DNA of 64,000 nucleotides from Escherichia coli (lineage in GTDB: Bacteria > Pseudomonadota > Gammaproteobacteria > Enterobacterales > Enterobacteriaceae): the NCBI RefSeq assembly GCF_030013205.1, contig NZ_CP122648.1, one strand, 5' to 3'. Below are positions 44,256-50,613 of the stretch, one piece after another; the first letter of the stretch is position 1; the number at the start of each line of letters is the position of its first letter. A program made the translations under genes and the position numbers. The notes under the pieces were generated by a model, which ran no database searches, had not been told where the DNA came from, and was given only the letters and a program-made list of their open reading frames with translations.

Positions 44256-45374
44256 CTACCAGGCCGGGAGCATAACGAATAAAACGTATCCCACCAGCGC
44301 CGCCCACAACAGCATCGGTATCGAATAAAGATGAAAACGCCACCAGATACGGCGATCGTTCGCCATCCGTAACGCAATCAAATTTGCCAGCGATCCGGGT
44401 AATAAACCAAAGCCCCCCACGTTTACCGCCCATGCCAGTAATAAAGACGGCGGTACATAATTGAGCAGCAAAATGGTACTCGGCACGTTACTGATCACCT
44501 GCGATAAACCGATTGCCGTTAACCATAACCCGGGTTCAGATAAATGACTCACGTTAGCCAACACGCCTTGCAACGCTGGAAGCTGGGTCAGTAAATGGAC
44601 GTCGATAAACATCGCCATAAATACCAGCAGCAGCGTCCAGTCCACACTAAGCACCACGCGACGTGCCAGCAGCGCAAAGCCCACCGCCACAATCACCAGT
44701 CCCCACAGCTCTTGTTTTAACTCCAGCGCCATCAGAAAGACGATATACAGCCCCAGACAACTCCACACCAGCCGCGGTTTCCACTCTGGTGTTTGCACCC
44801 CCGTATGGTATTGCAGCGTCTTTCCAGGGAAACAACACCAGCACAGGAGCAGGAGTGTCAGCATCATTGCGCCAGCCAGCGGTGCCATTTGGGCAATAAA
44901 TCCGGCAAACGAAAGACCAGAACGTCCCCAGATAAGAATATTTTGCGGGTTGCCAATTGGCGTCAGTAGCGAACCAGCGTTGACTGCCAGCGCCTCAAAA
45001 ATAATCAGCCGATTAACCGGGATCTCACACAGTCTTTTTAGCGTGATAGTCAGCGGAACAACTATAAACAGCGCGACATCGTTGGTCAGAAAGGTAGAAA
45101 GCAGCGCCGCCGCCAGCACCATAAACATCGCCAGCCGACGCTCCGTAGCAAAGCGGCGCACCATTTTGCGCCCCAGCACATCAAAATAACCACTTAGCTC
45201 CACACCTTTAGTCAGCAGCATCAGGCCGCTTAAGGTGATGATGGTGTGCCAGTCGATAGCAGCAGGCCAGGATTTCGGTGCAAAGGGAACAAAAAAACTT
45301 AATCCGATGCCAACAAGAATTAATAACTGAAAAAAACGATCGCCTTGCAGCGTGCGTAAAAAAGGCAGGCTCAT
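44256..45374 (-). CDS. ybiR: Inner membrane transporter YbiR
   Basis: 372 aa polytopic membrane protein. Confidence 0.88.
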
Positions 45375-45838
45375 TTGGCACCGTGTTTCTGGGTAAACAA
45401 ACGAAAGGCATCCAGCGTCTCTTCACTAACATGGTGCTCCATGCCTTCCGCGTCGCGACGGGCGATTTCCGGACTGACGCCCAACACCAACAAGAAATTT
45501 TCGACTATCTGATGTCGCTCGCGGCTTTCCTGCGCCAGTTTCTCTCCTTCTGCCGTTAAAAACACGCCACGCCAGGGGATCATTTCAATCAGCCCCATGG
45601 TTGCCAGCCGCTTAAGCATTTTCGCCACCGTCGGTTGCGAAACCCCCAGACGAGCAGCCATGTCCACCTGACGAGCTTCCCCCACTTCCCTGATCAAGTC
45701 AGAAATCAGCTCAACGTAATCATCAATAAGCTCGCGCCGATGCGCCTCTCTGACCTGGCGGAACCCTTCAACGTGCTCTTCCACGTTCACTAACTGCGTC
45801 ACTTTTTTTGCTGTTGGCGTACCTGCGCGACGACTCAT
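45371..45838 (-). CDS. mntR: Manganese-responsive transcriptional regulator MntR
   Basis: 155 aa DtxR-family regulator. Confidence 0.92.
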
Positions 45839-45939
45839 TGTGCTTCCTCATTTTGGTGACGCATACCTAGCGTTCTCATTTCGTGCGCACATTGTAAACC
45901 AGAGTTGCGAAGGTACAAAAAATTAACGTTTTAGCAATA

Positions 45940-45954
45940 GCTATATAATATAGC
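45940..45954. promoter_or_regulatory. Palindrome GCTATAT-A-ATATAGC upstream of mntS; candidate MntR operator or promoter element
   Basis: Perfect 7-bp-arm palindrome about 70 bp upstream of the mntS start. Confidence 0.35.
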
Positions 45955-46023
45955 CTGTGCTATATCTGTATGTAATGCAATCATCCCTCAAGGATCGACG
46001 GGATTAGCAAGTCAGGAGGTCTT

Positions 46024-46152
46024 ATGAATGAGTTCAAGAGGTGTATGCGCGTGTTTAGTCATTCTCCCTTTAAAGTACGGTTAATGCTGCTCTCTATGTT
46101 GTGCGATATGGTCAACAACAAACCGCAGCAAGATAAACCTTCCGATAAATAG
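46024..46152 (+). CDS. mntS: Small protein MntS (42 aa)
   Basis: ATG...TAG ORF encoding MNEFKRCMRVFSHSPFKVRLMLLSMLCDMVNNKPQQDKPSDK; missing from the supplied ORF track because it is below the size cutoff. Confidence 0.85.
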   Translation: MNEFKRCMRVFSHSPFKVRLMLLSMLCDMVNNKPQQDKPSDK

Positions 46153-46423
46153 CGGCGTCGCGGTACGCCGCTTCACTCCTGCTTTTATGCAGGCACAACG
46201 CGTTTTGGTCTGAAAAACCCCACTTTTTGTCGGATTTGCAATCCCCTTCGCAAAAGATTTGTTCGTCAGTAGTTGACCTGAACGGCGGCTCGCTCTATCT
46301 TCTTGCAGCCCTGCGTATATTGCGGCTCGCGGATGCGGACCCCTTTCCCCTCTTCACGCACTCTTGCAGGTATTGACCCTTGACGCCAGGGTAAGCACAT
46401 GGCGTTTGTTACGATAGTGGCAT

Positions 46424-48007
46424 ATGAATTTAACCCTCAAAGAATCGCTTGTTACCCGTAGCCGGGTATTTAGCCCGTGGACTGCGTTCTACTTTTTACA
46501 GTCGCTATTAATTAACCTCGGCTTAGGTTATCCCTTCAGTTTGCTCTACACCGCTGCGTTTACGGCTATTTTGCTTTTGCTATGGCGAACATTGCCTCGC
46601 GTACAAAAAGTTCTGGTCGGTGTCAGTTCGCTGGTGGCGGCTTGTTATTTCCCTTTTGCTCAGGCCTACGGCGCGCCTAACTTCAATACAATGCTGGCAT
46701 TGCACTCCACCAATATGGAAGAGTCGACCGAAATCCTGACGATTTTTCCGTGGTACAGCTACCTGGTCGGCTTATTTATTTTTGCGCTCGGCGTAATAGC
46801 AATAAGGCGGAAAAAAGAGAGTGAAAAAGCGCGCTGGAATACCTTCGACAGCCTGTGTCTGGTATTCAGTGTGGCGACATTTTTTGTTGCTCCCATGCAA
46901 AACCTGGCCTGGGGCGGCGTATTTAAACTGAAAGATACCGGCTATCCGGTATTTCGTTTTGCTAAGGATGTCATCGTCAATAATAACGAGGTGATTGAAG
47001 AGCAAGAACGGATGGCAAAACTTTCCGGAATGAAAGATACCTGGACGGTCACTGCCGTTAAGCCGAAATATCAGACCTATGTGGTGGTGATCGGTGAAAG
47101 CGCGCGTCGCGATGCCCTCGGTGCCTTTGGCGGTCACTGGGACAATACCCCGTTTGCCAGCAGTGTTAACGGTTTGATATTTGCTGACTACATTGCCGCC
47201 AGTGGCTCCACGCAGAAATCGCTTGGCTTAACGCTCAATCGCGTAGTCGATGGCAAACCACAGTTTCAGGATAACTTTGTCACCCTGGCAAATCGCGCGG
47301 GCTTCCAGACCTGGTGGTTTTCCAACCAGGGCCAAATCGGCGAATACGATACCGCCATCGCCAGCATCGCCAAACGAGCAGATGAAGTGTACTTCCTGAA
47401 AGAAGGTAATTTTGAAGCAGATAAAAATACGAAAGACGAAGCGTTACTGGATATGACCGCTCAAGTGCTGGCGCAAGAGCACTCGCAACCGCAGCTGATT
47501 GTTCTGCATCTGATGGGCTCGCATCCGCAGGCCTGCGACAGGACACAAGGCAAATACGAAACCTTTGTGCAATCGAAAGAAACGTCGTGCTATCTCTATA
47601 CCATGACGCAAACGGACGATTTACTGCGTAAGCTGTACGATCAGTTACGCAACAGCGGCAGCAGCTTCTCGCTGGTTTACTTTTCTGACCACGGTCTGGC
47701 CTTTAAAGAGCGCGGCAAAGACGTGCAATACCTTGCCCATGATGATAAATATCAGCAGAATTTCCAGGTGCCTTTTATGGTCATTTCGAGCGACGATAAA
47801 GCGCATCGGGTGATTAAAGCCCGCCGCTCTGCCAATGACTTCTTAGGCTTTTTCTCCCAGTGGACGGGAATTAAAGCGAAGGAAATTAACATCAAATACC
47901 CGTTTATATCTGAGAAGAAAGCCGGGCCGATATACATCACCAACTTCCAGTTACAGAAGGTGGATTACAACCATCTCGGAACCGATATTTTCGACCCGAA
48001 ACCTTAA
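46424..48007 (+). CDS. opgE: Phosphoethanolamine transferase OpgE
   Basis: 527 aa, N-terminal TM domain plus sulfatase-like domain. Confidence 0.9.
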   Translation: MNLTLKESLVTRSRVFSPWTAFYFLQSLLINLGLGYPFSLLYTAAFTAILLLLWRTLPRVQKVLVGVSSLVAACYFPFAQAYGAPNFNTMLALHSTNMEESTEILTIFPWYSYLVGLFIFALGVIAIRRKKESEKARWNTFDSLCLVFSVATFFVAPMQNLAWGGVFKLKDTGYPVFRFAKDVIVNNNEVIEEQERMAKLSGMKDTWTVTAVKPKYQTYVVVIGESARRDALGAFGGHWDNTPFASSVNGLIFADYIAASGSTQKSLGLTLNRVVDGKPQFQDNFVTLANRAGFQTWWFSNQGQIGEYDTAIASIAKRADEVYFLKEGNFEADKNTKDEALLDMTAQVLAQEHSQPQLIVLHLMGSHPQACDRTQGKYETFVQSKETSCYLYTMTQTDDLLRKLYDQLRNSGSSFSLVYFSDHGLAFKERGKDVQYLAHDDKYQQNFQVPFMVISSDDKAHRVIKARRSANDFLGFFSQWTGIKAKEINIKYPFISEKKAGPIYITNFQLQKVDYNHLGTDIFDPKP

Positions 48008-48011
48008 AAAC

Positions 48012-48040
48012 AAAAATCCGCCCCGAGAGGCGGATTTTTT
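48012..48040. terminator. Bidirectional Rho-independent terminator between opgE and ompX
   Basis: AAAAATCCGCC-CCGAGAG-GGCGGATTTTTT. Confidence 0.8.
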
Positions 48041-48055
48041 ATATCACCGAAGTGA

Positions 48056-48571
48056 TTAGAAGCGGTAACCAACACCGGCAATCCAGGTGCCTACGTCAAC
48101 GCTACGAATACGGCTCTGCTCGTAAGAGAAGTCCAGAGCAACGTTTTCCATCGGGTTGAACTGCAGACCAGCACCGTAGGAGAAACCGTAGTCGCTGGTG
48201 TCGTGTTTGTAGGTCGGGTATTCAGTGGTCTGGAATTTACCATAACCCACACCCACTACACCGTAGATGCTTGCCCAGTCGTTAATGCGGTAAGCCGGAC
48301 CAGCAGTGATGCCGTAGTACTGGTTTTTGTTGTAGTCACCAGAGCTTGCAGTACGGCTTTTCTCGGTGTAAGTGAAAGAACCGATCACACCCAGCGGGCT
48401 GTTGTCTTCTTCATAGCGGTATTTCAGGTTGAAACCGCCCATTTTGTTCATTTGGCCCTGAGCGTCGCTCTGTGCGTAACCGCCAGTTACGGTAGAAGTC
48501 GCAGCTACGGAAGTACCTGCGGTGAAAGCCAGAACTGCGGCCAGTGCTGAAAGACATGCAATTTTTTTCAT
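48056..48571 (-). CDS. ompX: Outer membrane protein X
   Basis: 171 aa from MKKIACLSALAAVLAFTAGTSVA...; beta-barrel with C-terminal YRF. Confidence 0.95.
   Translation of the reverse strand: MKKIACLSALAAVLAFTAGTSVAATSTVTGGYAQSDAQGQMNKMGGFNLKYRYEEDNSPLGVIGSFTYTEKSRTASSGDYNKNQYYGITAGPAYRINDWASIYGVVGVGYGKFQTTEYPTYKHDTSDYGFSYGAGLQFNPMENVALDFSYEQSRIRSVDVGTWIAGVGYRF

Positions 48572-49965: not shown

Positions 49966-50613
<648 letters not shown>

Follow-up and report, generated by a model that had tools for sequence, protein, structure and literature searches.

Described MntR systems and the mntR–mntS locus

In Escherichia coli, the MntR boxes at mntH, dps and mntP are 18-bp dyads built on the core ATAGC-N4-GCTAT, and the same core and dyad are found at mntS. 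The MntR-repressed genes mntH and dps have one strong box each, no more than about 50 bp ahead of the start codon; mntS has two boxes, a strong and a weaker one. In K-12, the mntH box (AAACATAGCAAAGGCTATGTTT) stands just upstream of the start codon, and the region upstream of mntP includes two boxes, ACATAGCTTAGGCTATAT and, farther upstream, ATTTAGCCAAAGCTATGT. The two mntP boxes are 39 bp apart in the sequence (centre to centre); in PMC11882963, they are described as lying about 170 bp from the promoter and as being used for activation. Among mntS, mntH, dps and mntP, only the boxes of mntS abut, with a gap of 1 bp.

An arrangement of this kind has been described in Bacillus subtilis. The mneP/mneS arrays, solved by cryo-EM, consist of 18-bp sites, each composed of two 9-bp inverted repeats, that follow each other at a distance of 1 bp (19 bp centre to centre), and the weak sites in these arrays are filled through dimer–dimer contacts (PMC11882963). 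The two mntS sites are likewise 18 bp wide and exactly 1 bp apart. The two systems differ in that mneP/mneS have four sites and are activated, whereas at mntS two sites lie over the core promoter and serve repression; the recognition sequences also differ between B. subtilis mneP/mneS and E. coli mntS.

The mntS gene specifies a small protein of 42 amino acids, encoded by the RybA transcript and made when manganese is scarce, and its transcription is repressed by MntR:Mn (PMC4361602). MntS binds the MntP exporter and lowers its activity (bioRxiv 10.1101/2023.06.02.543501), and the literature also credits it with raising intracellular Mn. RegulonDB curation lists mntS as an MntR-repressed target (PMC4207228), and its mRNA, once calibrated, reports how far MntR is occupied (PMC11742986); cellular manganese is routinely gauged through mntS. 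PMC11882963, citing Waters, Sandoval & Storz 2011, attributes two promoter-overlapping MntR sites to mntS and states that their spacing, with an 18-bp recognition sequence, is identical to that at B. subtilis mneP/mneS. The existence of paired MntR sites overlapping the mntS promoter is, therefore, already known, and the analysis reported here has little weight as a discovery, given that mntS, its repression by Mn-MntR and the paired promoter-overlapping operators have all been published.

The window analysed is a stretch of 64,000 nucleotides of E. coli DNA (contig NZ_CP122648.1 of assembly GCF_030013205.1). The interval under study, 45839–46152, is the divergent mntR/mntS (RybA) control region, and it begins one base ahead of the mntR start codon and ends with the mntS stop codon. 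The coding features are as follows.

45371–45838, minus strand: mntR coding sequence, specifying a Mn-sensing regulator of the DtxR family (155 aa); open reading frame, NCBIfam and Pfam matches, RefSeq annotation
46014–46019, plus strand: Shine–Dalgarno sequence AGGAGG, 4 bases before the ATG, 99–100% conserved in the 73-sequence alignment
46024–46152, plus strand: mntS coding sequence (42 aa plus stop); NCBIfam match, RefSeq annotation, orthologues

The MntR protein scores 269 bits against the NCBIfam model NF008273 (cut-off 153), and the Pfam models Fe_dep_repress and Fe_dep_repr_C also match. The gene order at the locus in RefSeq is ybiR, mntR, mntS, opgE. The 1,053 bp from mntR to opgE, which include mntS, match several E. 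coli chromosomes at 100% identity, and the stretch is found in 5,421 out of 5,426 complete E. coli genomes. The strain at hand is not K-12, but the locus is the same as that of the published E. coli mntS (rybA) promoter (Waters, Sandoval & Storz 2011, cited in PMC11882963 and PMC4361602): compared with K-12 MG1655, 5 of the 585 intergenic positions differ, all of them located outside the operator–promoter block and the mntS ORF, both of which are identical to K-12, so that nothing of substance differs.

The mntS ORF extends on the plus strand from the ATG at 46024 to the end of the stop codon at 46152, and its product is MNEFKRCMRVFSHSPFKVRLMLLSMLCDMVNNKPQQDKPSDK. A preceding sequence-only reading of this DNA had identified the 42-aa ORF as MntS, which is borne out by the match to the NCBIfam equivalog NF033226 (small_MntS; score 96 bits, cut-off 36, E = 6e-28, residues 1–39 covered), by the RefSeq annotation and by its occurrence in related species: in a survey of the Enterobacteriaceae with one genome per species (80 loci), MntS is encoded divergently from mntR in 77. 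Pfam does not include an MntS model. The same reading had presented mntS as a missed small-protein gene. It is indeed absent from the ORF track, solely because of the length cut-off (the ORF enters the list only when the cut-off is lowered to 20 aa), but RefSeq does annotate it. The gap between mntR and mntS measures 180–191 bp in all but three of the 77 species loci with MntS. The start codon is ATG in 78 out of 78 sequences, and the lengths of the encoded proteins range between 41 and 44 aa. Pairwise differences amongst the orthologues amount to 0.16, 0.08 and 0.32 at the first, second and third codon positions, respectively, a pattern indicative of a translated gene under purifying selection; that MntS is translated is known from published work (PMC4361602). 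The ORF at 46024–46152 is MntS, a real and already known gene.

The palindrome and the MntR operators

A perfect palindrome, GCTATAT-A-ATATAGC, had been noted about 70 bp upstream of mntS, and it is present there: the arms GCTATAT (45940–45946) and ATATAGC (45948–45954) are exact on either side of the A at 45947, and the distance to the mntS ATG is 69 nt from the 3′ end of the palindrome and 77 nt from its centre. Its surroundings include two predicted MntR operators, O1 and O2.

45929–45946, no strand assigned: predicted MntR operator O1, half-sites TTTTAGCAA and TAGCTATAT (full sequence TTTTAGCAATAGCTATAT), the weaker box, with a one-mismatch core
45940–45954, no strand assigned: palindrome GCTATAT-A-ATATAGC, made up of the last 7 nt of O1, the single base pair between the operators and the first 7 nt of O2
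45948–45965, no strand assigned: predicted MntR operator O2, half-sites ATATAGCCT and GTGCTATAT (full sequence ATATAGCCTGTGCTATAT), the strong box, a perfect 7-4-7 inverted repeat

Both O1 and O2 are 18-bp dyads of two 9-bp inverted half-sites, and the single A at 45947 separates them (18 + 1 + 18). We derived this geometry independently, and it agrees exactly with the spacing of the mntS sites given in PMC11882963. Both operators being palindromic, the right half of O1 and the left half of O2 together form a further palindrome across the seam, which is a consequence of their abutment with a 1-bp gap. Judged by its sequence, the palindrome is thus the seam between two adjacent MntR operators and does not itself constitute one.

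The core ATAGC-N4-GCTAT occurs in exact form at the K-12 mntH promoter, upstream of mntP, upstream of dps and at 45950–45963, within O2. In O1, the left half reads TTAGC in place of ATAGC, a variant shared with the upstream mntP box, and the one-mismatch copy of the core is TTAGCAATAGCTAT at 45931–45944. Two exact cores are present in the window where 0.04 are expected, one at 45950–45963 and one before dps, and each precedes a gene curated as an MntR target. Within the window, the dps promoter carries the box ACATAGCCGGTGCTATAC at 50045–50062; this gives a tidy internal control, since the one exact MntR core that the 64 kb contain besides that of O2 fronts a curated MntR target. We then scored all 63,983 18-mers of the window with a position matrix for which only the half-sites at mntH, at dps and in both mntP boxes were used. 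The four best scores were the following.

O2: 24.5 bits, rank 1 of 63,983
dps box (one of the matrix-building sites): 20.7 bits, rank 2 of 63,983
O1: 15.1 bits, rank 3 of 63,983
next best 18-mer: 10.7 bits, rank 4 of 63,983

The sequence-only reading had suggested that the palindrome could be a pair of MntR operator half-sites. This stands in so far as each arm is a half-site, but the arms belong to different, adjacent operators and are oriented outwards, a single base pair apart. That a single dimer binds both arms, making the 15-bp palindrome itself the operator, is extremely unlikely, even though the dyad is exact and both arms carry MntR half-site sequence. At mntH, mntP and dps, the half-sites stand in the opposite order, and a 4-bp spacer separates ATAGC from GCTAT; with the matrix described above, 18-mers in the palindrome register (starts 45936–45942) score between −16 and −45 bits, where O2 reaches +24.5 and O1 +15.1; and PMC11882963 counts two sites in the 18 + 1 + 18 geometry.

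Conservation was assessed in an alignment of 73 distinct enterobacterial intergenic sequences, in which the segment 45913–45979 is nearly invariant, while the flanks vary freely. In O2, 14 of the 18 positions show no variation, and conservation is 89–99% at the remaining four. The cores of O1 are 97–100% conserved, and its outer positions 45929–45931 and 45946 vary. The last of these bears directly on the palindrome: position 45946 is occupied by A in 27, T in 22, C in 20 and G in 4 of the 73 sequences, with neighbours that are 95–100% conserved. It is this base that makes the E. coli palindrome perfect, and its variation implies that the “perfect” palindrome is not conserved, which is a further argument against the palindrome as an operator, given the 89–100% conservation throughout O2. 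The motif TAGC-N4-GCTAT-N5-ATAGC-N4-GCTAT occurs with fixed spacing in 75 of the 80 enterobacterial species loci. Among 5,421 E. coli genomes, 5,156 have the 67 bp of 45913–45979 at an identity of at least 99%.

The symmetry could also be devoid of regulatory meaning, an AT-rich −10 region being symmetrical by chance. Perfect 7-N1-7 palindromes of any sequence are indeed no commoner than chance would give (the window has 7, and Markov-1 random sequences yield 4.7 ± 2.2), and TATAAT lies at the palindrome centre. The particular 15-mer, in contrast, is expected 0.01 times in the 64-kb window, so that the sequence exceeds chance where the bare 7-N1-7 form does not. Furthermore, the arm cores GCTAT and ATAGC, which contain G and C, are 96–100% conserved well beyond the −10 hexamer, and each arm has a partner half on its outer side with which it makes a full operator. 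The heptamer ATATAGC/GCTATAT has eight copies in 64 kb, three of which occur inside 26 bp here, and a repeat finder also pairs ATATAGC (45948–45954) with a second GCTATAT (45959–45965) over a 4-bp spacer. Chance symmetry is very unlikely as the full account: it is partly true, the symmetry being a by-product, and wrong in denying a function to the arms. More generally, where two dyad operators abut, the palindrome at their seam arises as a by-product and should not be counted as an operator.

O1 and O2 are, by their sequence and placement, the paired MntR operators of mntS, where the binding itself is taken from a secondary citation (PMC11882963). Two additional sites were considered in the vicinity. 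A third MntR site past O2 was rejected, as no 18-mer there is among the top matrix scores. A Fur box in 45966–45985 was also rejected: the resemblance is weak, and its 3′ half (45977–45981) is not conserved.

Divergent promoters and the repression of mntS

Promoter elements on both strands coincide with the operators.

45923–45928, plus strand: mntS −35-like hexamer TTAACG, 95–100% conserved in the 73 sequences
45944–45949, plus strand: mntS −10 hexamer TATAAT, at the palindrome centre and across the O1/O2 seam
45947–45952, minus strand: predicted mntR −10 TATATT (promoter scan), overlapping the mntS −10, 89–100% conserved
45971–45976, minus strand: predicted mntR −35 ATTACA (promoter scan), 90–100% conserved, in the invariant block 45966–45976

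The mntS −10 is conserved amongst the 73 sequences as T99 A96 N30 A95 A100 T89 (in %), which corresponds to the sigma-70 TAnAAT profile of a −10 element. The annotated 5′ end of K-12 RybA is located at 45957, 8 nt downstream of the hexamer and in the CTGT spacer of O2. The proposal that the palindrome overlaps the −10 element was, therefore, correct, with TATAAT (45944–45949) at its very centre. On the whole, we are highly confident that the locus comprises the MntS gene, the seam between O1 and O2 and, within that seam, the mntS −10 element.

Owing to its poor −35 (TTAACG), the mntS promoter was passed over by the promoter scan. For an RpoD-holoenzyme SELEX peak in the mntR–mntS spacer, published work lists TTAACG-16-TATAAT for mntS and ATTACA-18-TATATT for mntR (PMC3946193); by our count, the spacer between the mntS −35 and −10 is 15 nt, against the 16 given there, and the minus-strand match from our scan, ATTACA-18-TATATT, is the same pair as in that list for mntR. 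The Cappable-seq tables covered here have no entry near the expected coordinates of the mntS and mntR starts.

In the TATAAT consensus, the second position of the hexamer is A. The sequence TGTAAT (45971–45976) was considered as the mntS −10 and rejected, since it has a G at that position and no usable −35; it is a better fit as the −35 of a promoter on the opposite strand. On the minus strand, TTTACA (45898–45893) was rejected as the mntR −35: there is no −10 at 16–18 nt from it, and the expected region is poorly conserved.

The location of the −10 at the palindrome centre and of the RybA 5′ end inside O2 suggests how the operators work. Mn-MntR most likely represses mntS by blocking RNA polymerase, an occlusion that we infer from these positions. 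When Mn2+ is plentiful, Mn-MntR dimers would occupy O2, the strong site, and O1, the weaker one, the filling of O1 probably being aided by contact with the neighbouring dimer. This cooperativity between the O1 and O2 dimers is probable from the spacing and is extrapolated from B. subtilis. The two dimers would cover the −35/−10 spacer, the −10 and the start site down to about +9, and would exclude RNA polymerase, by which mntS would be switched off. Upon a fall in Mn, according to published work, MntS is made and inhibits the MntP exporter.

The conserved block may have another main purpose, serving the divergent mntR promoter or another regulator rather than the control of mntS. The promoter-like ATTACA-18-TATATT on the minus strand does overlap the same DNA, and the invariant stretch 45966–45976 is explained neither by O2 nor by the mntS −10. 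Against this, it is for mntS that a response to Mn via MntR has been demonstrated (PMC4361602, PMC11742986, PMC4207228), and in the table of PMC10003395, which credits its target counts to its reference 39, the “Target TFs” of MntR consist of Dps, without MntR, although several other regulators are self-listed there. As a replacement for mntS control, such a main role is exceedingly improbable; a function in the mntR promoter is nevertheless compatible with MntR operators over the mntS promoter, and the two do not exclude each other.

The position of O1 and O2 over the predicted mntR promoter raises the additional possibility that MntR represses its own gene and that the two promoters compete for RNA polymerase. 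We found no statement on mntR autoregulation in the accessible literature, and we consider it a tentative and rather unlikely proposition that this control is both true and undescribed.

The RybA transcript and prophage remnants in the operator region

RybA has been reported to be an Hfq-independent sRNA acting on aroF and aroL as well as the MntS mRNA (PMC11878033). RybA/MntS is thus itself one of the dual-function sRNA/small-protein mRNAs according to the literature. The features of the transcript are the following.

45957–46296, plus strand: RybA/mntS transcript of the K-12 RefSeq annotation (340 nt), mapped onto the window from K-12 rybA, 852725–853064 on the minus strand
45984–46002, plus strand: small hairpin in the 5′ UTR (45984–45989 paired with 45997–46002), with the helix specified by hand
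46151–46172, plus strand: terminator hairpin AGCGGCGT-CGCGGT-ACGCCGCT, an inverted repeat that overlaps the stop codon

The length of RybA in the literature is 205 nt (PMC4361602), against 340 nt in the annotation, and the annotated ends may be approximate. A scan of 45700–46500 with Rfam at E ≤ 1 returned no family and no RybA model, and the fold of 45957–46200 is not more stable than that of shuffled sequence (z = −1.4). For the hairpin in the 5′ UTR, 88.9% of the alignment cells are paired, against 36–60% when the partner is slid, and 15 cells are changed on both sides; we take this as modest comparative support for a real hairpin. RNAalifold did not predict the hairpin at 45984–46002, and yielded for the 5′ UTR only a trivial 4-bp helix, without covariation.

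The terminator hairpin is kept across genera and is followed in most of them by TTCATTTTT, which makes it an ordinary intrinsic terminator. The E. coli hairpin has TTCACTCC as its tail, and it is due to this degenerate T-tract that the terminator scan called none.

The invariant sequence CTGTATGTAAT (45966–45976) is only partly explained by the mntR −35. Alternatively, these bases could have a function as part of the 5′ region of RybA.

In E. coli 160-11H1, an 8.9-kb remnant of a P2-like prophage is present inside the mntR–mntS intergenic region. Both junctions could be read in this genome, and TATAATATA, the 9-bp centre of the palindrome (45944–45952), is repeated at each of them. These directly observed junctions identify TATAATATA as the attachment core for a lineage of P2-like phages. 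The junction on the mntS side, which is the integrase side of the prophage, is common to 27 out of 5,426 E. coli genomes, and in PSJ-16, the P2-like element has decayed to about 3.8 kb. The integrase region of the prophage has only short DNA matches, of 77–80% identity, to Fels-2-like phages.

In 160-11H1, O1 stays with mntR, and the −10 and O2 stay with mntS. Integration thus splits the operator pair and generates natural single-operator alleles, the regulatory consequence of which is uncertain. The prophage remnants that separate O1 from O2 could serve as natural test cases for the cooperativity between the two operators.

A P2-like prophage remnant between mntR and mntS

The intergenic region between mntR and mntS is interrupted by a P2-like prophage remnant in E. 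coli strains 160-11H1 and PSJ-16 (loci L086 and L087, respectively), at a point that falls within the seam of the two adjacent MntR operators, O1 (45929-45946) and O2 (45948-45965).

L086 556-9589: prophage remnant in E. coli 160-11H1; insertion point corresponds to window 45944-45952
L087 16085-20165: prophage remnant in E. coli PSJ-16; insertion point corresponds to window 45944-45952

The remnant carries genes for an integrase, CI, CII, Fil and a Dam methylase, along with portal, tail and head gene fragments; its cargo includes a serine acetyltransferase and a protein with a reverse-transcriptase domain. In 160-11H1, TATAATATA is found at both prophage junctions; this same sequence forms the centre of the palindrome GCTATAT-A-ATATAGC (45940-45954) and holds the mntS -10 element. 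The insertion parts the operators in this strain: O1 stays with mntR, while the -10 element and O2 stay with mntS. The integrase-side junction is common to 27 of 5,426 E. coli genomes.

A predicted mntR promoter and conserved segments beside the operators

A divergent promoter for mntR is predicted across the same DNA.

45947-45976, minus strand: predicted mntR promoter, ATTACA-18-TATATT

Its -10 overlaps the mntS -10 on the opposite strand, and O2 and O1 cover its spacer and predicted start region. These overlaps suggest that mntR is autoregulated and that the mntR and mntS promoters compete; we found no mapped mntR start site, nor any statement in the literature on autoregulation or promoter competition.

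Directly beside O2 and outside it lies CTGTATGTAAT (45966-45976), whose 11 positions each show 90-100% conservation across 73 enterobacterial sequences, nine of them being invariant. Only TGTAAT within it is accounted for, as the predicted mntR -35 on the other strand. The segment corresponds to +10 to +20 of RybA, the mntS transcript, and by this position could be a functional RNA segment. Another conserved island, CATTGTAAACCA (45890-45901), stands amid the otherwise variable stretch that separates the operators from the mntR start codon and, if the predicted promoter is right, would fall inside the mntR 5′ leader. Its minus strand reads TTTACA, with no -10 downstream.

The mntS transcript and a second MntR box

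The mntS 5′ UTR includes a small hairpin (45984-46002), for which comparison between genera reveals some compensatory changes: paired cells make up 88.9% of the total, as compared to 36-60% in slid controls. In the mntS terminator region (46151-46190) the hairpin is conserved, but the T-tract that follows is degenerate in Escherichia: it reads TTCACTCC, where most other genera have TTCATTTTT. This may account for read-through and for the annotation of RybA at 340 nt, versus 205 nt for the transcript in the literature.

Another exact MntR box, the second in the window, precedes dps, 48 nt ahead of its start codon (50111).

50045-50062: MntR box ACATAGCCGGTGCTATAC, core ATAGC-N4-GCTAT

Since dps is curated as an MntR-repressed gene, the window includes two MntR-controlled promoters, roughly 4 kb apart.

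Other variation at the locus

In Leclercia adecarboxylata (locus L039), the mntR-mntS gap measures 432 nt, compared to 180-191 nt in all but two other species, and the paired-operator pattern is absent, which indicates an insertion or rearrangement in the control region. In strains such as CFSAN018748, whose mntR-mntS DNA is identical to that of the window, opgE and ompX are separated by a copy of IS200C (locus L001, 5748-6206). The window itself lacks IS200C at 48007-48056, the ompX ORF following directly after opgE.
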